This document shows positions 1,220-19,018 of a stretch of 64,000 nucleotides of DNA, piece by piece. Below the pieces are notes generated by a model. That model searched no databases. It saw only the letters and a program-made list of their open reading frames with translations, and was not told where the DNA came from. Within the stretch, counting starts at the first letter, position 1, and each line of letters starts with the position of its first letter. The position numbers were made by a program, and so were the translations under genes. This DNA comes from a virus. Taxonomy: Duplodnaviria; Caudoviricetes. The DNA is taken from positions 90,700-154,699 of the IMG/VR virus record IMGVR_UViG_3300021387_000090. One strand, given 5' to 3'.

Positions 1220-2104
1220 TTAAAATCCCAGATCAAGAGTTCTTCCACGACTAGCGCCACTAGGTTTTGCAGTTTTCTTCGCAGTAGCATTAGCCTGTTC
1301 TTTCTGGCTCTCAATGCGATTTTTTCTTTCCTGAATACAAGCTTTGATTACTTCAGCGTCATAAGGCTTTTCAGGCGTTACACCTTCTTCATAAGGTTCA
1401 CTGGCACCAGTAATAATAAGTTCATTCTTGTAACTAGTTCTGGTTTCAACCTTCGGCTTACCAATAGCTACAGGAATTTCAATAGTCTTAACAACACGAT
1501 TGTTTACAACATCACCGAAAAATCTTACAGTCTGTCCTGCTTCAAATGTAGATTCAACAGCATCCGCAACCTCTGTATCTGCAACCAGAGTAAGAGGCTC
1601 AATACCATTCTCATACATAGGAACCCAACCCTTAACCAAAATTCTTCCAGTTTCTTCACCATCAGTGGTCATTTCTGGAGTCATCTGAGAGATAAACATT
1701 TCTACATCAAATGTCGCATGATAATTGGCATCTGCAGGATTGGCAATTCTATTAAAGAAATTAGACTTATACGATACAATATCATTTCCGCTCTGTACGC
1801 TATGATACAAATTCAGATCACCAATGGTACGAACAATATCTGCATCAGCTTCACCAACGGCAGCAATTGACTTATATTCATTCATCACAGTTTTAATTCC
1901 AGGATAGGCACGATTATCTGTATTCACTTTTGTCTTTTCTCGAATATTAATTGGGAACTGAATGAAATTTACGTCTGATGTCTTCAGAGTCAATTTACCT
2001 GAAATCATGTTCACTCCATCTTTCATCTCTTCTTTCAGATCCATATCCGAAAGGATACCTTCAACACTCACTTTTGCAATTGCCTGTCTAATATTTGTTT
2101 CCAT
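1220..2104 (-). CDS. Putative single-stranded DNA-binding protein (SPbeta YorF-like)
   Basis: 294 aa, beta-rich, flexible C-terminal tail ending in DLGF; directly upstream of the Sak4-like ATPase. Confidence 0.55.
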   Translation of the reverse strand: METNIRQAIAKVSVEGILSDMDLKEEMKDGVNMISGKLTLKTSDVNFIQFPINIREKTKVNTDNRAYPGIKTVMNEYKSIAAVGEADADIVRTIGDLNLYHSVQSGNDIVSYKSNFFNRIANPADANYHATFDVEMFISQMTPEMTTDGEETGRILVKGWVPMYENGIEPLTLVADTEVADAVESTFEAGQTVRFFGDVVNNRVVKTIEIPVAIGKPKVETRTSYKNELIITGASEPYEEGVTPEKPYDAEVIKACIQERKNRIESQKEQANATAKKTAKPSGASRGRTLDLGF

Positions 2105-2141
2105 TCTTTAAAAACTCCTTTTTCTATGTATTTTCTAATCT

Positions 2142-2342
2142 TTAAAACCAACGAGTGTCTTTATTTATATCGAGGCTGGGATCCTCGTTATATTCTACAA
2201 TAATTATTTCATTGCATTCTGGACATTGACATAATTTAGTTGAATAGCCATATCCATTTTCATCCCACCATTGAGGTACTTCTTTTAAAATTATTTTTGT
2301 CTTACAACTTCGACATATTCGGACTCCTTGATCGCTTTTCAT
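2142..2342 (-). CDS. Small zinc-ribbon protein
   Basis: CRSC...CPEC motifs; AGGAGA RBS upstream. Confidence 0.5.
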   Translation of the reverse strand: MKSDQGVRICRSCKTKIILKEVPQWWDENGYGYSTKLCQCPECNEIIIVEYNEDPSLDINKDTRWF

Positions 2343-2384
2343 TCTCCATTATAAATCTCCTTTCTTAAGTTAGTCATGACATAA

Positions 2385-2459
2385 TACCCAGAATCGGATT
2401 TGAACCGATAAGCACGATATTTTGAGTATCGCAGGTCTGCCAGTTGCCGTCATCTGGGC
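2385..2459 (-). tRNA. tRNA-Leu(CAA) with short variable loop
   Basis: GCCCAGA/TCTGGGT acceptor, CGATA-CT-CAA-AA-TATCG anticodon arm, ATCGG-TTCAAAT-CCGAT T arm. Confidence 0.8.
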
Positions 2460-2463
2460 AGGT

Positions 2464-2564
2464 GAGAAATAGAAATAAGGCCGTGTTAAAAAGGTATTGT
2501 TAGCGCTCCAATCGGGGTCGATTAAATGGTAAACCCGTTTCCCCATACCTCATCTCTATTTCTC
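2464..2564 (-). ncRNA. Unassigned structured RNA with 18-bp closing helix
   Basis: GAGAAATAGAGATGAGGT pairs with GCCTTATTTCTATTTCTC using G-U wobbles on the minus strand; two internal hairpins; lies between tRNA genes. Confidence 0.45.
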
Positions 2565-2580
2565 TTTGGTAGCTAACCAG

Positions 2581-2719
2581 TCGGAGTGATAGGATTCGAA
2601 CCTATAACACACAGTTCCTTGTTCCTATGAAGTAAGTGTTATACTGCTTCATTTTACATGAGAATAATAATAACACTCAAATATATTATACTGTTGCTCT
2701 ACCGTTAAGCTACACTCCG
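2581..2719 (-). ncRNA. tRNA scaffold whose anticodon loop is replaced by a permuted Y-RNA-like module
   Basis: CGGAGTG/CACTCCG-A acceptor, GCTT-AACGGT-AGAGC D arm, ACAGT/ACTGT anticodon stem, ATAGG-TTCGAAT-CCTAT T arm; insert contains TATTC-TCAT..ATGA-AGCAG..ACTTC. Confidence 0.75.
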
Positions 2720-2877
2720 TGGTGAGGTTAAAGTCCCTCAACTACACATATTACCAAGTTGGCCTATTGTCTTACATCCCTGTTCACCATTAATGTACAT
2801 TAAAATATTCTATGACTACTAACGAAGCAAGTTTTTCAATACTGCGGATGGTATTCATTTGTTCTCGACCGCTATCA

Positions 2878-2950
2878 TCGGAATAGAGAGACTTGAACTC
2901 TCGCCTCATCGGTTAAAAGCCGATTACTCTACCAACTGAGTTATATTCCG
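2878..2950 (-). tRNA. tRNA-Lys(TTT)
   Basis: Canonical cloverleaf; ATCGG-CT-TTT-AA-CCGAT anticodon arm. Confidence 0.9.
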
Positions 2951-2986
2951 AAAATAAATTATGGGTAAGGATTTGTACCTTATTAT

Positions 2987-3298
2987 TCATCCAGACTTAT
3001 CTGTAAGTTCAAAAAATTTATAACCATGATACAAAAAATAAATATAATCCCAATTCGTATCATAATTATCATTACCGCACCAGTCTTCTCTGTTAATTTC
3101 TATATCCAAAATTTTCGCAAGTTTTTCAAGATTAGTTATCTGAATTGCTTTTTCGTGAAATGTGTCAGCAACTGTAATTGATTCAAAGGATTTTCTTCTC
3201 ATTTTTTCGGCTTTAATCTGCATATTCAACCATTTATATGCGTTGTCCATTTCTCTCATTTTCATTCTTTCTCCAAATAATTTTTTGGTTAAACTCAT
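2987..3298 (-). CDS. Hypothetical protein inside the tRNA cluster
   Basis: 103 aa ORF with phage-like composition. Confidence 0.55.
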   Translation of the reverse strand: MSLTKKLFGERMKMREMDNAYKWLNMQIKAEKMRRKSFESITVADTFHEKAIQITNLEKLAKILDIEINREDWCGNDNYDTNWDYIYFLYHGYKFFELTDKSG

Positions 3299-3486
3299 AA
3301 TAAATACAGGAATGAACTAACATTTGCAGTCTTCGCTAACATACCAGTCAATGTGTACTCATGAGGGGCATACCATTTTCCACTTGAGGCCCATATTCAC
3401 TTATATACCGCACCGAAAGTTATCTACGGCTTTTACACTCGTAACTTTAATCCGTCGATTGTGCCCACGGCCATCCGTGCGGTTTA

Positions 3487-3585
3487 TTATGCGGGTAAGG
3501 ATTTGCACCTTACATGAGCAAGTTATTTACCGTAATTTCACATGCTCTTACGGACTATGTGTCTATCTATTCCACCACCGCATAA
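3487..3585 (-). ncRNA. tRNA-like RNA with aberrant, expanded anticodon domain
   Basis: TTATGCGG/CCGCATAA closing stem, GTGG-AATAGATAGA-CAC D-like arm, GTAAGG-TGCAAAT-CCTTAC T-like arm; no 7-nt anticodon loop. Confidence 0.6.
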
Positions 3586-3632
3586 CGTAGTCTTTCCTAC
3601 TGTCAGATCCCTCCACTTTGCACAAGTGAAGA

Positions 3633-3833
3633 TCGGAACGACAGGAATCGAACCCGCAATCAAGTTATCAACTTGTAAGCCGTTTCAAACCTTTATTTTG
3701 ATACGAGGAATTAGTATCATTATCACGCTACCCTCGAATGGTTACAAGTCCTACGCTACCTTTTATAAGAACAAAGGGATGGTGATTAGCCAATTACATC
3801 TTCGTCCATGTCTTCCTATTCCATCACGTTCCG
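3633..3833 (-). ncRNA. tRNA scaffold with a long insert in place of the anticodon arm (201 nt total)
   Basis: CGGAACG/CGTTCCG-A acceptor, ATGG-AATAGGAAGA-CAT D arm, GCGGG-TTCGATT-CCTGT T arm; internal ACTTGTAA/TTACAAGT helix. Confidence 0.65.
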
Positions 3834-3892
3834 AAGTGAGAGATGGGTAATTACATCCCTTATTGGTAGTCTCTCATTCAGTTTTCTACCAC

Positions 3893-3964
3893 AGCTGAAG
3901 GTGGGACTCGAACCCATGACCCTTCGCTTGCAAGGCGAATGTTCTCCCACTGAACTACAAGCCC
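3893..3964 (-). tRNA. tRNA-Ala(TGC)-like with unpaired acceptor stem (pseudo-tRNA)
   Basis: Good D, anticodon (TTCGC-CT-TGC-AA-GCGAA) and T arms, but 3' strand CTTCAGC does not pair with 5' GGGCTTG. Confidence 0.7.
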
Positions 3965-4074
3965 ATAAAAGTAGTTTTTTTATAGAAGATGCTACTAAAC
4001 TTCTTGTTATCCTTGTTGCACTACCTATAATTTTAAATGCCCAATGGACCATACCTCCATTCGATAGGATAAAA

Positions 4075-4148
4075 TACTTCTAAAAGGATTTGAACCTTTA
4101 TTTCTATTGATAAAATAGAAAGTCTAACCGAACTTAACTTATAGAAGT
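4075..4148 (-). tRNA. AU-rich tRNA-like gene, apparent anticodon TAT (Ile)
   Basis: ACTTCTA/TAGAAGT acceptor, TCTAT-TT-TAT-CA-ATAGA arm, AAAGG-TTCAAAT-CCTTT T arm; atypical C at position 37. Confidence 0.55.
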
Positions 4149-4375
4149 ACCAAATAATAAAAATCTTACTCAACGCCTAGACATTATTAAGGGGTCTGCG
4201 TTGCCTTCTTCCTTATCCTCATCCACTCCTCAGATTTTTATTAAATAAAATAATTAATTAATTAATTGAAGAGAAATCACACCTTTTTCTTCATATGGGG
4301 GTGTCTATTTAACATATAGATACGTTATCAGATATATCATTTCACTGATAAAAAGATTCACTTTGGGGAATCTAG

Positions 4376-4756
4376 TACGGGTAGTGGGACTTGAACCCAC
4401 ACTCTCTTGCGAGAAACGGATTTTCTTACTACACTATGTCACCATAGCCATCTTAATGGATGTTGTAGTCTGGACTATGTTTTTACCATATCATTTCTGA
4501 CTTAGGTAGATGGTATATAGTCTCTACACATTTATAGATAGGGTTCGAGCGTCAATGATAACATGTTCATTCCGTCAGTCTCTCTTTTAAAAATAAACGA
4601 ACTAAAACGATTACTTCCCTATCTAATTTAGCTCGGCGTTCTCTTAGCCATTCACCGAATTAGCCATCTCCACTTATATCGTTTCCGATATAAGGCTCTC
4701 TTTTAATGTCTGCTAAGACGAAAGTCCGTTGCGTCTGCCTATTCCGCCATACCCGC
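4376..4756 (-). tRNA. tRNA-Leu(TAA) interrupted by a group I intron
   Basis: 5' exon GCGGGTA...ACGGACTT, 3' exon AAAATCCGT...GTGGGTTCAAGTCCCAC-TACCCGT-A; splicing restores ACGGA-CT-TAA-AA-TCCGT; long variable arm present. Confidence 0.9.
4425..4721 (-). mobile_element. Group I intron without ORF in tRNA-Leu anticodon
   Basis: Follows an exon U and ends in G; P/Q/R/S-like elements AATTCGGTGAA, AACGCCGAGC, GTAGAGACTA, AACATAGTCC. Confidence 0.85.
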
Positions 4757-4842
4757 ATATTATTTACTGCCCCAACTCTTCCCAAAGACAGTATGTCATG
4801 CCCATGATCCACGACTTCCATTTCACTTCATTATATTTAACC

Positions 4843-5136
4843 TCAATCCTCTTTCCTTTTCATTAGCCACATTGTAGGCTTGACTTTCTGAAAACCACAT
4901 TTCTCATAAACGTGGATCGCTCTACTGTTATCATCATTTACCCACAAGCAGTTAATGTCATAATCCTTAATAAACTTTTCAACAATCTCTGTCCCGTACC
5001 CTTTTCCTTGATAAGGCTCATAAATAGTCAGCCGTGACAACATCTTACCCTTAAGGTCAACTTCGGCTTCACCTATTTTTACGTCATCATCAAATAATTC
5101 AAATTCTTGATACAGTTCGTTCGTTTTATATCTCAT
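4843..5136 (-). CDS. GNAT family N-acetyltransferase
   Basis: Motif A YQGKGYGT and N..AIHVYEKCGF. Confidence 0.85.
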   Translation of the reverse strand: MRYKTNELYQEFELFDDDVKIGEAEVDLKGKMLSRLTIYEPYQGKGYGTEIVEKFIKDYDINCLWVNDDNSRAIHVYEKCGFQKVKPTMWLMKRKED

Positions 5137-8100
5137 CGTCCCTCATCTCCCCCCGTATACGATGCAGGAAGTGGCATCCACGCAATTACATCTGCATTCA
5201 TGTACCAACTTTGACAATCACCATCACCATTCGTACATTCTTCGTACCAACCCTCTAAGCAATAGTAATCATCTAATTCTTCATTATATTCTTCACAACT
5301 ATCATCTGGTAAATCTGTCCACTTATCTTCAATCTTAATAGTAAATCTGGGAATCCAGCATCCAATAGTTTGAAAATATCTATATCCATCTGGCCACGCT
5401 TTACCACGACATTGCATAATAACTTTTACGTTAGGATCTGGCATTGTTTCTGGTGTGCAAGGAATCCATTTTTCTTCTGACAAATCGCATGGTTCTAACT
5501 GCTTTCTTGTTTCATAATGATAGCTTTCACACTCTTCCTTCCAACAATCTGTGTTACAATGATTAGTGTTTGAACGCTTAACTCCTAAATAACCCAAAAT
5601 TATGGCACGTTCATTAGGACACATATTCATATAAGCCATTTTTTCTGATAAAGCATCTGCTATCTTTTTCAGTTTATCTTCAAGGTCTACGGTGGGCAGA
5701 CTTCTCACGGTACTTGCGGTTGGATACTTGCCAGAGCGCCAACCATCTGACAACATCTTGATGACATCATCCTCGTTGATCGCTCTCATGCTTGTTCACC
5801 TTCTTCCCTCATATCAGCACCGCACATACAGCAAAATCTAGGTTTTTCATCATCATCAAACCATTGAATAGGATTTCCGCATATATTGCAATCTGCAATA
5901 TTATGACCGTTATCATTTCGGTGATTTATCCATTGCCCCTTTTTCCGATTTAGTTCATAGACAGGCGCTTTCTCAATCGCATTATTTAACTTTTCCCATA
6001 GCCAACCAGCATCTATAGGCAGACCAGCAACAGACATTACTTCTACGGCATTACACATATCATTGTATAGCACCTCTGCATCAATCAACCACATCACGCT
6101 CACCTTCTTCCATCTTTGCGCCACAGTTCGGGCAGTAGTTTGAAGTTTGACTATCTGCCCACCAGCTGTAAACACTCCTGCATTCGCTGCATTTATAGCA
6201 GTCTCCGATAAATATCCACTTCCCTTTCTTTCGCTCTGGTTCAACTTCTATAGATACGTGTCTACCGTCAATAGAAACTCTGTACAAACCGCTCTTACGA
6301 AACACAATTCCATATCCCACATCGAAAGTAGTATAAGTATATGTCTTGTTTTCAAACGTTATCGGCTCATCAACACCAACCGATATAGGCTCTCCACCTA
6401 CAAATTCAGCCATTCTACTCACCTTCTCTCCTATATGGCTCTGGCAGTGGCATCCATGCAATCACATAACTATTACAACGCCCAAGCACATCACTTACAA
6501 ACGCAGGATTTTCATGATAATGTGGATTTCCAAGCGTATATTCCATGATGGTTATACAGTCTTCTGTTTGCACTAAATAGTGTCCACCCTTTTTTGGCGG
6601 CCTCTCACTACACGGAATCCACCGCTGCTCTGGCTGTGCGGACGGAATCTTATCCAGATCGCATTTGACAGTTGTCAAAGCACAGTTAAAACCATTCGAG
6701 TGCATCCAATGCCCAAATTGTGAAATATCAGGATCGTCCATATAAGCTATGAATTTTCCGTGCGCTTCATACGCATCTGGATTTGTGTTGACCGTTTCTT
6801 TTCGGAGACAGTATTCAACGGCACTTCTCGGGATCGTGTCTTTTGTAAAGTCATCCATCACTTGTCACCTTCTTCCCTATACGGTTCTGGCAATGCACCG
6901 TCTTTGTACATCCACCAGTAGACACTCTTATATGTATTTTTCTTCCACTGCCACCGATGAATGTTTTCTTCGCCATTGATGTGACCGAAGCCTCTGTATG
7001 TTCCGAAGTCCCATGTGCCTTTTAACCCCTTGACAATAACCACTTTGCCTTCTTCGGGTAGCGTGTCTTTTGTCACCGGAATCCACCGATGTTCTGGCTG
7101 TGCGGATGACACATCATCAAGACAGTCAACACATTTGTCGTGGAAGTCAGAAAAAGATTCCCCATCTTCCCATATAACCCTTGCTACCTTCAGTTTTGCC
7201 GCCTGTCTACTAATAGCATCATCTTTCATAATGATCCTCTATCCTTCTTTTGCAACGTGTACATGGAGATGGATATCCGTATTCAACTTCATTTTCCCAT
7301 TTACCCAAGTGCTTACATCCTTCACAGGTTTCTAGCTGTGCGGTAGGCATATCCTTGATAGTTTGCTCAATCCTTATCATATTCCAACATCCAATATCCA
7401 TCAGCACGATTTATATTTTTATTGAGCAATTCGTCAGCGTCTATTGGCCTCATTCTTCGCCCTCCTGTCTAATGTATCCGCAATTCGTGACAGCTGATAC
7501 GCGATATTTCTCAAATCTGTATGGTAATCGTGTCCATTCGGAATGCTCAGTATTATCGCCAAAGATACCATCGCACCAGCAATGAATATCATCCCCTCCA
7601 CTTCTGTTCACCTTCTTCTCTGTACGGCTCTGGCAGTGGCATCCATGCTAATACTGCTTTGTTTGTAAGTGCGCCAAATTCTGACCACCATTCAATCTTT
7701 CCGCTTCTTGGATCAGCAGACCTTTTTGCTTTGATTACCTTCTGTTCGTAACCTTTAATTTTAAAAGGCTCCTTAGTGATAAGCACATCATGTCCTTCTT
7801 CAGGCAACCTTTCAGCACATGGAATCCACCGCTGTTTCGGCGTGACGAACGGTAATTCATTTAACGCCTTACAAATTTCATCTGTATACAAAAATTCCGC
7901 ATGATTTGGTCTATCCAGAATTTCCATCAGTGCATCAATTGCCGCATTTCTGCTCACCGCATTCTCGCACGTTTCTGGCTGTTCCTCTTCGCACAATTTC
8001 AGAAAATCAAGCTTCGACTTCTCTTTTATGTCCAATGTCCCCAATTCGTGTGTATAAACTGGTCTGTCATACAGTTCATCGAGATATTGATAAAACACAT

Positions 8101-10161: not shown

Positions 10162-10686
10162 TTAAGGCCATTCACCTAATGGCTTACCTACATTAGCCAC
10201 ATCAGTACAGAAATGCACTGGAATATTTTCAAATATTTCTTTTGCAATATCCTGATACAAAGTGGATCTCATTCCATTAATATCACCAAGATTGTCATTA
10301 TAATACTGAACCACCTGATTCCTAAATACAACAAAATCCATTTGCATTGCATAAGGATTATCTACCGAATGAAAATAAGATACAATAGGATTATTCTTAA
10401 AAGCTGCCTGAATAAGTTCAAATGGACTCATTTCATTTGTGGGATTAGCAGGAATAACAATAATCTTAATACAAACATTTCCGAAATATTTCTCAGAGGG
10501 GAGAAGCTGTGTTAATGCATCTGCTTTTTCACTACCAGTCACATACAACTTGATCTCATCTGTATTTTCATTAAAAACAATTTTAATATCAGGATCTTCC
10601 TTAAACAACTCTTCTAACTCGTTATAATACTCACACCAAGGTGGTGACAAATTCAATTCATTACTATTTCTAACTTCTTCGTCCAT
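10162..10686 (-). CDS. Conserved hypothetical protein
   Basis: 174 aa ORF with AGGAGA RBS. Confidence 0.7.
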   Translation of the reverse strand: MDEEVRNSNELNLSPPWCEYYNELEELFKEDPDIKIVFNENTDEIKLYVTGSEKADALTQLLPSEKYFGNVCIKIIVIPANPTNEMSPFELIQAAFKNNPIVSYFHSVDNPYAMQMDFVVFRNQVVQYYNDNLGDINGMRSTLYQDIAKEIFENIPVHFCTDVANVGKPLGEWP

Positions 10687-10918: not shown

Positions 10919-11014
10919 AAGCTGAGAATAATAAAACGAGTTTATATAATACAACACCCATCATCAAAAAAACTTACCTACTTGTTAGAAGTAACTCGTT
11001 TTCCGCTTCAGCTT
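10919..11014 (-). ncRNA. Y-RNA-like unit A (non-tRNA cargo loop)
   Basis: AAGCTGA-AGCGG-AAAACGAGTT-ACTTC ... AACTCGTTTT-ATTATTC-TCAGCTT; downstream of Ro60 gene. Confidence 0.75.
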
Positions 11015-11034
11015 ATCTGAAAGGACTTTTTATC

Positions 11035-11140
11035 AACCGAGAATATTTGAAGAGTTCATATGGGATTCGAACCCACTTAGTTAGATTTACAGTCTAGTGA
11101 TAAACCAAATATCGAAGTAACTCTTCAGGCCGCTTCGGTT
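11035..11140 (-). ncRNA. Y-RNA-like unit B (D, anticodon GTA/Tyr and T arm cargo)
   Basis: AACCGA-AGCGG-CC-TGAAGAGTT-ACTTC, GATA-TTTGGTT-TATC, CTAGA-CTGTAAA-TCTAA, GTGGG-TTCGAAT-CCCAT, AACTCTTCA-AATATTC-TCGGTT. Confidence 0.8.
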
Positions 11141-11158
11141 ATATTAATATTCATGTTA

Positions 11159-11272
11159 ATAGCCGAGAATAATGATAGGGTTTTATACCTTGGGATTCGA
11201 ACCCAAATAATCCAATTACCAATTAGAAGCATTACCATTATGCGAAGTAACCCTAACAACCGCTTCAGCTAT
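11159..11272 (-). ncRNA. Y-RNA-like unit C (D, anticodon GGT/Thr and T arm cargo)
   Basis: ATAGCTGA-AGCGG-TTGTTAGGGTT-ACTTC, GCAT-AATGGTA-ATGC, TCTAA-TTGGTAA-TTGGA, TTGGG-TTCGAAT-CCCAA, AACCCTATCA-TTATTC-TCGGCTAT. Confidence 0.8.
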
Positions 11273-11288
11273 ATAATTTATCATCATA

Positions 11289-11421
11289 ATAGACGAGAAT
11301 AAGATAACAGTTTTTTAGTATCTTTCAATTGGAATCGAACCAATAATAGTTTTCTTAAAAGGAAAATGACTTAACCGTTTGTCTATAAAAGAGAAGTAAC
11401 TGTTATAACCGCTTCGCCTAT
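11289..11421 (-). ncRNA. Y-RNA-like unit D (complete tRNA-Lys(TTT)-like cloverleaf cargo)
   Basis: ATAGGCGA-AGCGG-TT-ATAACAGTT-ACTTC, acceptor TCTTTTA/TGAAAGA, TTTTC-CTTTTAA-GAAAA, ATTGG-TTCGATT-CCAAT, AACTGTTAT-CTTATTC-TCGTCTAT. Confidence 0.8.
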
Positions 11422-11427
11422 ATTTTA

Positions 11428-13092
11428 TTACTGTTTATTTCGTTTTCTATTATCTTTTTCTTGATCTTTCTGATCCCATAACTTGATCATAGCATCAGCA
11501 AAAACAAGTTCTTTACCAGTCCAACCATACATAATGTTTGTTCTATATCCGTATTCAGGAACCAATACATTACTGTATCCCGCAGTTTGTACACAGAACA
11601 CATTTACTTTAGGATTAACTTTGTTTCTGTATTCCTGAATAAGTTTGGCTACATCAATGTAAGTTATTCCACAGCAAAAACCAGCTTCTCTATATTCACG
11701 CTCACCTTGAAGTGTTCCATAAAGCCCACCATGACCAGCTTGCATATCTGAATAGATAAAGATATTATCCCAATGTTCTTTCTTTTTGATGGCGTCTCTA
11801 AAGAAAATCCAAACACCATTTTCTGTACCGCCACCGACATCTCTACTCCGTCCACTGGTAATTTTTTCAGCCTGTGTTAATACACCATTCCGTTTGGAAA
11901 TGGGCGTAATAATTAACTCATCCCCAAACTTACCAACATACCCCTCGTCGCTATTCTTGGCAGTAATAACAGAACTTAGATTATCAATCTCCGCAACAGT
12001 CACGCTACCATACTCAGAATTAAAAGCGCCCCATGCAGATCCGCTATTATCAGAAAGACACATTGTCTTACCTTTTAGCTTCGGCATATTATCACAAGCA
12101 ATATCAATACATTCTTCCAAAGCATCAAGTACTATGGGCTTATGATATATGTCTGCCTTTTCAAGCATTTTATATGCAGACCAATAACGGAAAGGGAACT
12201 GCTTTCCATTGATTACACCTTTCTTCAGATAATCAAGGATTCTTTTACATAAATCAGCATCCAAAATCTCTGTAAAGATATTCCTTAAATTACGAAGGAG
12301 GCTCATGTGATTAAGAACTTTGGCATCCCAAATCTCTCTCCAAGTTTTTCCTGCGGATTTTAATCTTTCCCACGTTGACTCATTATCTTCTACTTTAATT
12401 GTACCAGTGGTCATTAATTCATCAATCACTGAATTATTTGCATGACAAATTCTTACGGTATCAATCATGCCCACGTTTGCGTTTTTATATTTCGCCAGTT
12501 CATATCTGGTTCCATTCTTCAAACGCTTTGCCCAAGATCTTTTTAAAATAGAAGGAATATGATTCTTCTTTCCGTTTCTATACAGCCAATAAGTAAGCTG
12601 AGAACTAGGTTCGTCTGCTCTACTCATTACCTGATAATTAATTTCAGAGAAAAGACCGGGATGTTCTTCGTCAAACTGTACTCTCTTTGGATGCATTGCA
12701 GCACGAACCATAATCACTTGCGGATTCAACCGCATATAATAATCTTTTCGTAATTCCAAAGCCCAACGAATGGTAGCTTCAAAATCTGCATCCAGAGCGT
12801 CATCAATAACTGTTTCCATTACTTCAGAAGTCTTTTTACCATTCCACTGATCACCAATTACAGCATAATCAGCAAAGGTTCTATTCAATGTAAAAATACC
12901 ATCAAGGACTCCTTTTTGGGCAAATTCACCAGTTCTATAATACTGAGGTTCGCCCATGATCGAGGATGCTGTAACCATTTTCATTGTTTCCACGGGAGAA
13001 AGTCCATAAGATATACCCCCCATATAATTGGTTTGGGCCTTTTTTGTTTCTGTAGTTCTCTTTTCTGTTACCGCTCTAGCCATTCTACTCAT
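11428..13092 (-). CDS. rsr: Ro60/Rsr-like TROVE-domain RNA-binding protein with C-terminal vWA domain
   Basis: 554 aa; TROVE hallmarks SLLRNLRNI and QFPFRYWSAY; MIDAS-like DNSGS and IYSDMQ; flanked by Y-RNA-like repeats. Confidence 0.9.
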   Translation of the reverse strand: MSRMARAVTEKRTTETKKAQTNYMGGISYGLSPVETMKMVTASSIMGEPQYYRTGEFAQKGVLDGIFTLNRTFADYAVIGDQWNGKKTSEVMETVIDDALDADFEATIRWALELRKDYYMRLNPQVIMVRAAMHPKRVQFDEEHPGLFSEINYQVMSRADEPSSQLTYWLYRNGKKNHIPSILKRSWAKRLKNGTRYELAKYKNANVGMIDTVRICHANNSVIDELMTTGTIKVEDNESTWERLKSAGKTWREIWDAKVLNHMSLLRNLRNIFTEILDADLCKRILDYLKKGVINGKQFPFRYWSAYKMLEKADIYHKPIVLDALEECIDIACDNMPKLKGKTMCLSDNSGSAWGAFNSEYGSVTVAEIDNLSSVITAKNSDEGYVGKFGDELIITPISKRNGVLTQAEKITSGRSRDVGGGTENGVWIFFRDAIKKKEHWDNIFIYSDMQAGHGGLYGTLQGEREYREAGFCCGITYIDVAKLIQEYRNKVNPKVNVFCVQTAGYSNVLVPEYGYRTNIMYGWTGKELVFADAMIKLWDQKDQEKDNRKRNKQ

Positions 13093-13109
13093 ATTATTTT
13101 CTCCTTTTA

Positions 13110-13204
13110 AATTCGTGAATATTTAAGAGTGCTTAAAAATATATGTAGGGAAGATTTCAAGTCTTTTCTTTATAATTGAAGTAACACTCTTACCGCTACG
13201 AATT
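13110..13204 (-). ncRNA. Y-RNA-like unit E (Ser TGA anticodon-hairpin-like cargo)
   Basis: AATTCGT-AGCGG-TAAGAGTGTT-ACTTC ... AAGA-CTTGAAA-TCTT ... AGCACTCTTA-AATATTC-ACGAATT; ends just before the Ro60 RBS. Confidence 0.75.
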
Positions 13205-13437: not shown

Positions 13438-14322
13438 TTAAATCAAATAACTTCTATACTGTCGTAAAAAATCCCATCTAAAGCGGCTTATATTATATTG
13501 ATTTTTTACTTTATCATACAATTCCTGTGTAGCAATTACTGTATATGGCTGTATATTATTTTGCTTTGCCAAACAATTAATATAATGAACTATACCAGCG
13601 GTTACAATATCTGTTACAGAACAATTATATTCCATTTCTTTTAATGCTTTAACCACCTGCGCATAGATCTTTTTGTATCTTATAATAGGATCAGTTGAAG
13701 AATCCTTCTGATAAAAATCTTTTAAGATCCGACCATTATCAATAAGATCTCTCGTAGAATGGCCCCAGGGTACAGAGTCTTCTTCTTTTGCTTGATGGAT
13801 CACTTTCAATAATTCATCAGAAATTGTAACTGTCCTGTCAATCAATTTCAATTCATGTCCATTAATATCCTCTTCTTTTGCATCAAGAAGATCCCGAAAA
13901 TTATTTTTGCCGCCAACTTCAAATAGCATCAGCATAACATATTTCATTCTTGCTGTTCGAAGTTCTTTAAGATGCAACAGAAAATCTTCACGAGTAATAA
14001 GCTGATCTTTGATTCCTTTTTCAGTAAGAATATTTTCAATTTCTGTACTGTTTATTCTGCGGGCTTCATTTACTTTACAGTATCCTTTCTGGATGCACCA
14101 ATCTATATAAATTGTAATTATGTTTTTGTACTTTTCTATGGTATAAAAGCGTTTACTTTCTGTAGTCTGAAGAAGAAATAATATTTCTTCTTTTGAAAAA
14201 TCACATACGTCTTTTTCAAACAATTCCTCAATTTCAGAAATAGAACGGAACAAAGAATCAGTTAAGTCATTACGGTTTATATCCGAATTTATAAAATCAT
14301 TTTTTCTATCTTCGTTATACAC
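13438..14322 (-). CDS. SPbeta YopR/MrpR-like repressor (tyrosine-recombinase fold, catalytic residues not evident)
   Basis: MYNEDRK..F start, E..FEKDVCDFSKEEI and YIDWC motifs; adjacent to a YopQ-like gene. Confidence 0.65.
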   Translation of the reverse strand: MYNEDRKNDFINSDINRNDLTDSLFRSISEIEELFEKDVCDFSKEEILFLLQTTESKRFYTIEKYKNIITIYIDWCIQKGYCKVNEARRINSTEIENILTEKGIKDQLITREDFLLHLKELRTARMKYVMLMLFEVGGKNNFRDLLDAKEEDINGHELKLIDRTVTISDELLKVIHQAKEEDSVPWGHSTRDLIDNGRILKDFYQKDSSTDPIIRYKKIYAQVVKALKEMEYNCSVTDIVTAGIVHYINCLAKQNNIQPYTVIATQELYDKVKNQYNISRFRWDFLRQYRSYLI

Positions 14323-15249: not shown

Positions 15250-16284
15250 TTAAAAAACAAAATCAGCTTTTTCTTCTCTTTCAACGGAATCCGTCAAATA
15301 TTTTGTCAGATCCTGAATCATGGCATCATATCTGTTCTGCACGGCCTCCTTTCTTGCAGAACCAGATCCAACATAAGTTACATACTGTTCTACAAGATCA
15401 TATCGCCCATCACAGAAGAAATCCTGAATCCATTTAATCAGTGTCTCTTTCTCTACAAAACCATCTTTCAGCACCTTATTAATTACAGGAACAAGACTAA
15501 GAAGATGAATTCTGGTCACAATCCGTTTCTGTACCTTCTTCTTAAAGCAACCCACATAAGCTTCATAAATAATATCATAAATCTTATTCAACTGATCTAC
15601 ATCATCCTGAGACAGTTCAGCGTCATTCATAACTTCACGGACTGTCTTAGTACTAAGATCCGTTTCCTCATTATTAATAAGTACATAAGACTTCATTACA
15701 ATCTCTTCATTTGCATACTTAGCCATGGCTGCCTGAGTAAAAGTAGAAGTAAACAACTGATGCTGACCGATTTCTTTTACCTTGTCAAAAGATTTTGCTT
15801 TAACTCTCGTCAACTCAATTCCAGACAACGGCTTACCATTATTTAGTCTAAAAAACAGTTCGTTTACTTCTTCATCAGTAAGGCCAGAGAAAGACCATAC
15901 CTTTACCTGATACTGATCAATGAGATCTTTTACCTCTTCAGGCAATTCAGAATATCTAAAACCTTCAAGTCCCATTTCTTCTGTCCCATGGTCTGTATCA
16001 AAAGTGATATCTGGAACTTTAGTCAAAGCAAACTCATCATTTCTAAACGCTGCGATAGTAGTTAATCTCTGTTTTCCATCAAGAACATCATAAATACCAT
16101 CTTCTCTTGTGGTAATAATCGGAGGCATAGGGAATCCGTACAGCATCGAATGAATCAGCAAAGATTTCTGTTCCCGATTCCAAGCAAGTCCTCTCTGTAC
16201 TTCATTCTCTACAGTGATTTTATTATTCTTAAGCATAGTCATAATCTGTTTCGCGGTCCAGCTTTTAGAATCAAGATCAAACAT
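15250..16284 (-). CDS. DUF262 (GmrSD N-terminal, ParB/Srx-like) domain protein
   Basis: VQRGLAW, SLLIHSML.G.P.P, DGKQRLTT and FFRLNNGKPL motifs. Confidence 0.85.
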   Translation of the reverse strand: MFDLDSKSWTAKQIMTMLKNNKITVENEVQRGLAWNREQKSLLIHSMLYGFPMPPIITTREDGIYDVLDGKQRLTTIAAFRNDEFALTKVPDITFDTDHGTEEMGLEGFRYSELPEEVKDLIDQYQVKVWSFSGLTDEEVNELFFRLNNGKPLSGIELTRVKAKSFDKVKEIGQHQLFTSTFTQAAMAKYANEEIVMKSYVLINNEETDLSTKTVREVMNDAELSQDDVDQLNKIYDIIYEAYVGCFKKKVQKRIVTRIHLLSLVPVINKVLKDGFVEKETLIKWIQDFFCDGRYDLVEQYVTYVGSGSARKEAVQNRYDAMIQDLTKYLTDSVEREEKADFVF

Positions 16285-18031: not shown

Positions 18032-19018
18032 TTACAGTAAATTACTCATAATATCAGATGCCTTTTTAGTTACATCAGCCTGACCACGAATATATCTTTC
18101 CGTAGTAGTAGGAGAATTATGTCCCATTGCTTTCTGTACGAAATAAATATCCTTTGTTGCCTCGTATAATTGCGTACCATACGTTGCACGAAGTTTATGA
18201 GGTGTAATATGTTTTCCGTTAATATCACAAGCATACTTGGTTACAATTGCACAAAGACCATCATCTTTCAACCTATCACCATACTGATTCAGAAACAAAG
18301 CAGAAGTCTGTTTACCGTTTAAAACTGCGTCTCTACGCTTAAGCCATTCAACAATAGCGTCTTCGGTTCCTTTATTCAACTGATAATCTTTTACCTTCCC
18401 GCCTTTATCTGTAACCCAAAGTATATGTCTCTCTAAATCTACATTCTCTACGTCCAAACTTTGCATAGCTGATCTTCTAATACCAGTAGTAAGAAATACA
18501 AGAATAATAGCATAGTCTCTTTCTTTCATACGCATTTGACAGCGTTTAGCGTTTTCACTACCAACCCCCTCTTTAACGGAGGTAAGATATACTTTCAATT
18601 CTTCTTTTGTCAAAAAGCTTTTTGCTCTTTTTTCAATAGTCTTTTGGCTTTCAATAGGTTTTGGACGAGCAATAGAATCCATATAATTAGTTGGCAAAAT
18701 ATTAACTTTAACTAAATATTCATTATACAACTTAAGAGCATGATATTGTTGAATCATAAAGCTGCTTGTTTTAGCTTCACCATTTTCATCATAAGCGGTA
18801 CTACTCATAAAATAAGTAAAATCATCAAACCCCAATTCATTTGGCTTCTTATGTAAATCATGTAAAAGTCTATCTGCAATGGCGATATAACGATATACAG
18901 TATTCAAAGATTTATTAATGCGAAGATAATTATAAAATCCTCTTACATCAGGATGCGAAAGTAAATAATTTTCAATAGTATTAATACGATCATTTTTCAT
19001 TTCGTTGTAACCAGTCAT
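18032..19018 (-). CDS. Tyrosine recombinase/integrase (XerC/D-like; SPbeta YopP-like)
   Basis: Catalytic set TGIRR, KGGK, HKLR, MGH and ERY present. Confidence 0.9.
   Translation of the reverse strand: MTGYNEMKNDRINTIENYLLSHPDVRGFYNYLRINKSLNTVYRYIAIADRLLHDLHKKPNELGFDDFTYFMSSTAYDENGEAKTSSFMIQQYHALKLYNEYLVKVNILPTNYMDSIARPKPIESQKTIEKRAKSFLTKEELKVYLTSVKEGVGSENAKRCQMRMKERDYAIILVFLTTGIRRSAMQSLDVENVDLERHILWVTDKGGKVKDYQLNKGTEDAIVEWLKRRDAVLNGKQTSALFLNQYGDRLKDDGLCAIVTKYACDINGKHITPHKLRATYGTQLYEATKDIYFVQKAMGHNSPTTTERYIRGQADVTKKASDIMSNLL

Follow-up and report, generated by a model that had tools for sequence, protein, structure and literature searches.

Positions 90,700 to 154,699 of the IMG/VR virus record IMGVR_UViG_3300021387_000090 (64,000 nucleotides (nt), referred to here as the window) form part of a complete 154.7-kb phage genome with direct terminal repeats, and contain a 139-nt gene at 2581-2719 on the minus strand. 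This gene raises an obvious question: what kind of RNA is a transfer RNA (tRNA) body in which a structured insert of 74 nt stands in place of the anticodon loop? Our analysis suggests that it probably encodes a noncoding Y RNA laid out in tRNA strand order, which would undergo tRNA-like maturation and bind the phage Ro60 protein through a hairpin at the anticodon site. As judged from sequence comparison, the RNA is most likely matured like a tRNA while being neither an intron-bearing nor a decoding tRNA. Its architecture and conservation, its tRNA tertiary signature, its co-occurrence with Ro60 and the tracking of encoded CCA with the tRNA genes of each phage are established from sequence.

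Architecture of the 139-nt RNA and its handle

The Rfam tRNA family RF00005 covers the gene from end to end (51.5 bits, 72 nt at the anticodon loop being treated as an insertion); the cloverleaf possesses a 7-bp acceptor stem together with D and T arms, and U8 and A9 sit between the acceptor stem and the D arm. Where RF00005 has a 7-nt anticodon loop with U33 and an anticodon, the 139-nt RNA has instead its 74-nt insert, composed of a linker, a bulged hairpin and a second linker. Apart from the A/U-rich linkers, the insert reads, 5' to 3', GAGUGUUAU-UAUUAUUC-UCAU[GUAAA]AUGA-AGCAGU-AUAACACUU-ACUUC (Table 1). An earlier note on this stretch, made from the letters alone, had quoted strings of the acceptor and the insert, with A73, and all of these were found in their places on the minus strand. 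The same note had expected tRNA scanners to miss the gene. This is true of ARAGORN, which makes no tRNA call at 2581-2719 and finds no transfer-messenger RNA (tmRNA) in the window, but not of the Infernal tRNA model, which detects it. In fold predictions the isolated insert adopts the proposed bulged hairpin, and the whole RNA constrained to a cloverleaf reaches -30.4 kcal/mol against a minimum free energy (MFE) of -33.7 kcal/mol, a gap of 3.3 kcal/mol. A model built here (R1) gives the window gene 130.8 bits and identifies it as the sole such copy in the 154.7-kb genome. Promoter and terminator scans of 2100-5200 gave nothing better than shuffled sequences.

The hairpin at the anticodon site is built from a module that recurs around the Ro60 gene. 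Five Y-RNA-like units (A to E) surround this gene and carry the module, or handle, in its usual strand order: 5' helix 1 is followed by (Y)GAAGCGG, helix 2 and UUACUUC, after which come the cargo, helix 2', (U)UAUUCUC and helix 1' at the 3' end. The order in the 139-nt RNA is helix 2' - UAUUAUUC - helix 1' - loop - helix 1 - AGCAG - helix 2 - ACUUC; the shared module, YGAWGCRG - helix - UUACUUC / helix' - AUUCUC, is thus present in reversed strand order and loop-closed. Compared with the flanking units, the RNA thus contains the same handle pieces in permuted order, as the earlier note had stated. Chance predicts 0.02 occurrences of the permuted motif TATTC..AGCRG..ACTTC in the window, where one is present; helix 2 resembles that of unit B from the same genome.

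The expectation that homologues would keep the handle motifs was also borne out. Among 313 distinct handle 5'-strand modules, drawn from fetched loci for which either the handle motif or the Ro60 protein had served as the search key, the consensus NNYGAWGCRG is the same in 15 modules from copies with an open acceptor and in the 298 others. ACUUC is found in every copy tabulated, and WWUHCYC in 13 of 15 open copies as well as at the 3' ends of the flanking units. The motif AAUGAAGCAG corresponds to the form taken within this clade by the (G)NCGAA(N)G / CGAA motif of the Ro60 site, published as GNCGAAN0-1G / CGAA (PMC4201824; PMC12135203). Compared with the published motif, the window handle AAUGAAG-CAG keeps GAAG but not the G and the C, the latter being relaxed to U.

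The RNA had further been described as a permuted sixth copy and the complement of units B to D. As a literal permutation this does not stand. Between its handle strands unit B holds a full cloverleaf (58.9 bits against Rfam tRNA), in which UCUUUUA/UUGAAAG form a separate 7-bp acceptor and CUUUUAA is the anticodon loop, and units C and D contain D-anticodon-T domains with the handle in the acceptor position. Because the Rfam tRNA matches inside units B to D run in normal order, the handle lies on the acceptor side of a cargo that is itself a tRNA-order domain. The description does hold for what is displayed, in that units B to D expose anticodon arms and hide the acceptor, and the sixth copy does the reverse.

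Conservation, covariation and the 3' end

At least 20 distinct copies, each with an open 7/7 acceptor, came from three approaches: scans for sequence patterns in the viral, metagenome and genome collections, a covariance model derived from a MAFFT-based alignment of the window family, and a strict scripted detector. They belong to about eight viral or metagenomic contig groups (window/L001/L088, the L018 family, L032, L089, L007, L103, L252 and L285), between which handle sequences differ; where a Ro60 was fetched for a group, it is 49-76% identical to that of the window. A homologue of 132-134 nt is located 1.5-2.5 kb downstream of a 76% identical Ro60 in three IMG/VR contigs and several metagenome contigs. 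Many other pattern matches in metagenome and genome collections were chance occurrences in coding DNA or ordinary tandem arrays of bacterial YrlA Y RNAs; among 52 bacterial or archaeal genome matches no open copy was recognised, and when the RNA island was compared as DNA with the phage collection, generic tRNA matches but no close relative came up.

Pairing is maintained while sequence changes. In a MAFFT alignment of the window gene and close relatives, which was not fitted to any structure, 12 of 34 pairs changed on both sides (five acceptor, three anticodon-stem, three T-stem and one handle pair), and 97.7% of cells pair as against 39-46% after sliding the partners. Relative to the L001 family, five of the seven acceptor pairs are changed on both sides; relative to L001/L088 (UAAGA/UCUUA), three of five anticodon-stem pairs are compensatory, and handle helix 2 shows a G-C to C-G swap in L001. 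Pairing of helix 2 was judged from this alignment, from a model-fitted alignment and by hand. In the model-fitted alignment (about 21 insert-bearing rows), which leans towards its model and has ordinary tRNAs among its rows, all nine helix-2 pairs changed on both sides with 88% paired, and 93% of cells in helix 1 are paired. In helix 1, the pairs that the window family has in common do not vary; other lineages have 4 to 7 bp of other sequence.

All 16 tabulated homologues pair 7/7 in the acceptor with differing sequences (L007:10344 being counted in register 10344-10484). In these 16 representatives U8, A9 and A14 are invariant, and the tertiary 15:48 pair covaries, being A:U in nine, G:C in six and G:U in one, which on comparative grounds is the signature of a real L-shaped fold. 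The immediate surroundings of the handle are more varied: a 4-6-bp anticodon stem is kept in the window, L001, L088 and L089:1698; in L018 and L032 the anticodon stem is missing, and UUACUUC is followed by a short hairpin, the 'V' arm of YrlA, whose 7-nt loop is anticodon-like; and L007, L103 and L089:1398 have in that place a short hairpin with another loop, of AUCAGGA type.

The 3' end behaves as the 3' end of a tRNA would. CCA directly follows the discriminator in 5 of 16 representatives (both from L007, both from L103, and L145:605). Two phages encode CCA at their ordinary tRNA genes (7/8 and 4/5), and there 4/4 elements have it too; elsewhere it is present in 1/12 elements, where the corresponding tRNA counts run from 0/8 to 4/13, with 2/5 on the short L089 contig; in L145 one of three tRNA genes encodes CCA. 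The difference between 4/4 and 1/12 gives a hand-calculated Fisher p of ~0.003. Ordinary tRNA genes with CCA number 1/13 in the window, 0/8 in L001 and 0/8 in L088, and the elements there are likewise without it. We take this tracking to mean that selection favours the 3' maturation that real tRNAs undergo, on comparative evidence that falls short of proof; because encoded CCA follows the tRNA convention of each phage, it lends indirect support to the action of tRNA end-processing enzymes on the RNA. The complete genome encodes neither a CCA-adding enzyme nor RtcB, and host enzymes would therefore be needed.

The acceptor had been called proline-like, and C1-G72 with A73 is indeed present, but charging finds no support. 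Bacterial prolyl-tRNA synthetase (ProRS) identity also rests on anticodon bases G35/G36; these are absent here, and proline charging was rejected. Alanine identity was rejected as well, the window copy having G3-C70. G3:U70 is confined to some relatives, where it occurs in two acceptor contexts (the L018 family, with A73, and L032), and it is not kept between the homologous-looking L032:5367 and L145:605. Because acceptor and discriminator (A, G or C) vary freely among homologues, charging is unlikely as a general function.

Table 1 Features of the 139-nt RNA gene and of the Ro60 locus in the window (RNA motifs read 5' to 3')
Feature	Position	Strand	Remarks
tRNA-shaped Y RNA gene (putative), whole	2581-2719	-	139 nt; 5' end at 2719, A73 at 2581; CCA not encoded
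Acceptor stem, 5' strand CGGAGUG	2713-2719	-	7/7 pairs with 2582-2588
D arm GCUU-AACGGUA-GAGC	2696-2710	-	A14, A15, G18, G19 and A21 present
Anticodon stem, 5' strand ACAGU	2690-2694	-	pairs with 2611-2615
A/U-rich 5' linker, anticodon stem to handle	2679-2689	-	A-rich in relatives also
Handle helix 2, first strand GAGUGUUAU	2670-2678	-	9 pairs with 2634-2642
Internal-loop motif UAUUAUUC	2662-2669	-	AUUCUC of unit 3' ends, extending into helix 1
Handle helix 1, loop-closed UCAU[GUAAA]AUGA	2649-2661	-	read from sequence and fold
Internal-loop motif AGCAGU	2643-2648	-	with preceding AUGA = AAUGAAGCAG
Handle helix 2, second strand AUAACACUU	2634-2642	-	covariation over family and MAFFT alignment
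ACUUC of (U)UACUUC junction motif	2629-2633	-	present in all copies tabulated
3' linker AUAGGAACAAGGA	2616-2628	-	without anticodon-loop-like remnant
Anticodon stem, 3' strand ACUGU	2611-2615	-	pairs with ACAGU
Variable region GUGUU	2606-2610	-	5 nt; U48 pairs with A15
T arm AUAGG-UUCGAAU-CCUAU	2589-2605	-	canonical
Acceptor stem, 3' strand CACUCCG	2582-2588	-	pairs with CGGAGUG
Five Y-RNA-like units, usual strand order	10921-13204	-	surround Ro60 gene
Unit A	~13109-13204	-
Unit B	~11292-11418	-
Unit C	~11162-11269	-
Unit D	~11036-11139	-
Unit E	~10921-11012	-
Phage Ro60 (TROVE), presumed protein partner	11428-13092	-	same strand as RNA gene, 8.7 kb upstream in transcription direction

Relation to YrlA and Ro60, and competing explanations

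In YrlA, of which Wang et al. 2018 (10.1101/312249) give a structure, the Ro-binding stem is made by the 5' and 3' ends and leads into the anticodon stem; the order of the other elements is first the T arm, then a closed acceptor hairpin, and finally the D arm (10.1101/312249; PMC4201824). Being without a free CCA end, YrlA has been likened to a circularly permuted tRNA (10.1101/312249). The 139-nt RNA resembles YrlA in its D and T arms, acceptor stem and tRNA tertiary pairs (U8, A9, A14, G18G19 and a canonical T loop), in being encoded on the Ro60 strand, and in placing a bulged, putatively Ro60-binding helix with a (C/U)GAA-containing motif at the anticodon-stem position. The two differ in their ends. 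YrlA termini lie in the Ro stem, its acceptor is loop-closed and it has no free CCA end, whereas in the 139-nt RNA helix 1 is closed by GUAAA and the termini form an open 7-bp acceptor with a discriminator, to which, as noted, some homologues add an encoded CCA. On this comparison the 139-nt RNA is an exact circular permutation of YrlA wiring in which tRNA connectivity is restored. The earlier note's view of an unpermuted counterpart of YrlA, with a loop-closed, permuted handle for its anticodon loop, gains support from the homologues with compensatory changes. YrlA wiring itself is seen in related phages, as tandem arrays in L010/L022, L004 and L005 and in phage G (L207:9783-9935), and a half-unit, out-of-phase reading of a tandem YrlA array would open the acceptor loop and close the Ro stem.

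The authors who drew the tRNA comparison ask whether some YrlAs are processed into a more tRNA-like form, and speculate on a dimeric-tRNA origin (10.1101/312249). M. smegmatis YrlA is cleaved by RNase P and has CCA added to it in vivo (PMC4201824; 10.1101/312249), and this cleaved, CCA-tailed molecule is the nearest published counterpart. It likewise presents an open acceptor and CCA 3' end on a Ro60-bound tRNA mimic, but consists of two pieces and also has free ends in the Ro stem, whereas the 139-nt RNA is a single chain by gene design. The phage G YrlA, with a 7-bp acceptor hairpin and encoded ACCA, appears RNase P-ready like that of M. smegmatis. Units B to D and the D. radiodurans Yrn1-type RNA (PMC4201824) share the handle motifs and a tRNA-order D-anticodon-T domain, yet their handle closes the acceptor side and leaves the anticodon arm exposed, the opposite of the 139-nt RNA. 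In tmRNA and viral tRNA-like structures, a non-decoding lower part is joined to an acceptor and T domain of tRNA type that ends in a free CCA; unlike tmRNA, the 139-nt RNA has no mRNA-like open reading frame (ORF) or G3:U70, and is linked to Ro60 rather than SmpB. In the engineered 'tRNA scaffold' for recombinant RNA expression, cargo is placed in the anticodon stem. The architecture is the same, and presumably so is the gain in precise processing and nuclease resistance; the 139-nt RNA, however, is natural and conserved and bears a predicted protein-docking module. Permuted tRNA genes are also known in red algae and in archaea (cited in 10.1101/312249); they show that tRNA and permuted wirings interconvert in evolution, but are processed into ordinary decoding tRNAs. 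In the searchable literature, whose coverage leaves out two Wolin-lab reviews, no description of the open single-chain form was found.

The presumed partner is a TROVE/Ro60 protein: its ORF matches Pfam TROVE (E 7.8e-6) and the solved Ro60 of Thermus phage phiLo (9KOP/9L5Y; E 6e-11), and is 60% identical to gp540 of Bacillus phage G. A TROVE protein is encoded in every searchable record bearing an open copy, and only records that encode Ro60 yielded open copies. Ro60 and the open copy share a strand and lie 0.7 kb (L103), 1.4 kb (L007), 1.5 kb (L088), 2.5 kb (L001), 8.7 kb (window) and 11.4 kb (L018) apart. We infer from this association and from the handle motifs that the hairpin binds Ro60. 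Several observations nevertheless weigh against a Ro60-binding Y RNA. The 8.7-kb gap in the window exceeds the ~4 kb typical of YrlA genes, which lie on the Ro60 strand and nearly always within 4 kb of it (Chen 2014, PMC4201824), and helix 1 of the window copy has just 4 bp and is loop-closed. L208, whose Ro60 is 74% identical, has no open copy within 10 kb downstream. The putative Ro60 site is identified solely by Ro60-gene association and a partial motif match (UGAAG, not CGAAG), and the Rfam Y-RNA and YrlA families match nothing in the window even at an expectation value (E) of up to 10; at that threshold the RNA gene and the Ro60 locus yield, apart from noise, only tRNA matches and none to a Y_RNA, YrlA or intron family. 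Because there is no curated Rfam Y-RNA or YrlA match, the Ro-handle assignment rests on motif and Ro60 association. Bacillus phage G has no open copy within 12 kb on either side of Ro60, and under strict criteria an open copy lies within 10 kb in only ~6-8 of 80 Ro60-centred viral loci.

Two explanations appear poorly compatible with the conservation pattern. An ordinary tRNA gene, from which an intervening sequence is removed to yield a decoding tRNA, would fit the full-length tRNA-model match and an insert located exactly in the anticodon loop, and a possible large-insert tRNA lies nearby (~4376-4756). This reading was rejected and we regard it as extremely improbable: no Rfam intron family matches at E up to 10; the insert is a simple bulged hairpin without a group I core, and at 74 nt it falls far below bacterial and phage group I introns, which are far longer; wherever the cuts are placed, the window and L001 do not both retain a conserved 7-nt loop containing U33; the anticodon stem is entirely absent in some homologues; and the insert bears conserved Y-handle motifs and covarying helices. 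A functionless chimera, the decayed recombinant of a tRNA gene and a Y-RNA unit, would explain both the patchy distribution (absence from L208 and from the phage G locus) and the likeness of helix 2 to that of unit B. We consider it very unlikely, since all stems are intact and compensatory changes extend across lineages with Ro60s only 50-76% identical, and the covarying tertiary pair and the tracking of CCA point to a folded, processed RNA under selection.

Two further explanations accept a functional RNA and differ as to which part of it works. The tRNA body may be a mere scaffold for a hairpin that binds a ligand other than Ro60, such as polynucleotide phosphorylase (PNPase) or another host protein. 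The island and related phages do hold tRNA bodies with unrelated hairpins or folds in the anticodon region, and PNPase is also bound by Y RNAs (PMC12135203). That the internal-loop motif is common to the termini of units clustered around Ro60 genes, and that open copies are restricted to Ro60-encoding records, makes this explanation unlikely. Alternatively, the free acceptor could be the functional point, aminoacylated or bound by acceptor-end factors in the manner of tmRNA or a decoy, either bringing Ro60 to such factors or shielding them. CCA tracking is in keeping with this, as is G3:U70 in the L018 family and L032, given that alanine identity requires no anticodon (PMC9976931); moreover, phage Bas63 uses a Ro60-like protein to counter the ppl defence system (PMC11482910). 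The G3-C70 of the window copy, its proline-like end without the ProRS anticodon bases, the free variation of acceptor and discriminator and the lack of conservation of G3:U70 between L032:5367 and L145:605 all speak against it, and we give it only a small chance.

We therefore return to the reading of a tRNA-ordered Y RNA. RNase P and RNase Z would excise the RNA from a tRNA-rich transcript, and a host enzyme would add CCA, as for the phage's own tRNAs. The hairpin would then bind the phage Ro60 ring through its predicted docking elements UGAAGCAG, AUUCUC and UUACUUC, placing Ro60 at the anticodon position as in YrlA. The tRNA body could supply precise ends and nuclease resistance and, with its 3' end now free, could offer the elbow and acceptor surface for docking that YrlA has. 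The result would be either to tether Ro60 to a tRNA-recognising partner or simply to stabilise a Ro60 ligand. Ro60 and Y RNA are known to tether PNPase for the decay of structured RNA, and one phage Ro60 assembles with host PNPase (PMC12135203). It is tempting to speculate, although we hold the idea to be doubtful, that phage Ro60 particles each display a different tRNA face, the whole being a counter-defence device centred on tRNAs. Units B to D would show anticodon arms with the acceptor blocked, and the 139-nt RNA a CCA acceptor with the anticodon blocked. The free end would be the working part, perhaps charged in some lineages (the G3:U70 copies), or else serving as bait or shield against host factors that attack or read tRNA acceptor ends.

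Neighbouring structured RNAs and wider meaning

The island around the gene contains further structured RNAs, all on the minus strand of the window. The 120-nt spacer between the RNA gene and tRNA-Leu(CAA), at 2461-2580, forms a very stable long hairpin with an outer stem of ~18 bp, GAGAAAUAGAGAUGAGG.../...CCUUAUUUCUAUUUCUC (MFE -40.8 kcal/mol, z = -5.7, 0/200 shuffles as good), and is possibly a further structured RNA or a processing element. An RNA of ~200 nt at 3633-3835 has a perfect 7-bp acceptor CGGAACG/CGUUCCG followed by A, a T arm and a multi-hairpin insert of ~135 nt at the anticodon-arm site; the Rfam tRNA model misses it, and its fold gives z = -0.5 against shuffles. A tRNA-like RNA at 3487-3590 has an 8-bp terminal stem and the variant T loop GUAAGG-UGCAAAU-CCUUAC, of which a near-copy T arm, GUAAGG-UACAAAU-CCUUAC-CCAUAA, is found at 2955-2990, just after a 103-amino-acid ORF (2987-3298). 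At ~4376-4756, tRNA-like halves with acceptor GCGGGUA.../...UACCCGU are separated by ~300 nt; no Rfam intron family was matched in this region at E up to 1. A tRNA-Ala(UGC)-like sequence at 3893-3962 (Rfam 45.4 bits) has unpaired acceptor strands with mismatches in the Rfam alignment. Just upstream of the Ro60 locus, also on the minus strand, lie genes for an MrpR-like recombinase N-domain protein (13438-14322), a GmrSD-N-domain protein (15250-16284) and a phage integrase-family protein (18032-19018).

Related Ro60 phages encode more tRNA bodies with 7/7 acceptors and normal D and T arms in which long plain hairpins or other folds form the anticodon region. Examples without Ro-handle motifs are L018:14619-14722(-), L145:1334-1450(-), L146:569-685(+) and L032:5727-5854(+), together with a ~136-nt family GUUGAUG...CAUCAAC in L018, L055, L118 and L145. 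Placing cargo on a tRNA scaffold thus seems to be a more general practice among these phages. The short hairpin after UUACUUC, in copies with YrlA wiring and in some open ones, has a 3-bp stem and the loop CUCUUAA, CUUCUAA or CUUUUAA; such 7-nt-loop hairpins were seen at L018:13548-13681(-), L032:5367-5495(+) and L010:9470-9930(-), and in L016 and L020. In phage G (L207, NC_023719), the surroundings of Ro60 comprise tRNA genes, a tmRNA and the gene for a CCA-adding enzyme (gp522), with five further handle units just upstream of Ro60; the Y-RNA units are unannotated in NC_023719, and the stretches of note are L207 632-1888, 9783-9935, 11245-11930 and 16647-16955.

ARAGORN skips the open copies of the window and L001 and calls the 3' part of one open element (L032:5429-5496) as tRNA-Arg(UCU), so that phage tRNA inventories and Y-RNA censuses may both miss such genes. 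In design, as far as comparison can tell, the 139-nt RNA corresponds to the known YrlA Y RNAs of bacteria with the wiring changed and the ends set free. A single-chain Y RNA in tRNA order would represent the missing wiring between tRNAs and Y RNAs, and would make the link between them a simple permutation of the kind that a tandem array permits. Furthermore, it would provide a clean substrate for asking whether a Y RNA's tRNA module undergoes maturation, CCA tailing or charging, and whether Ro60 needs free stem ends.

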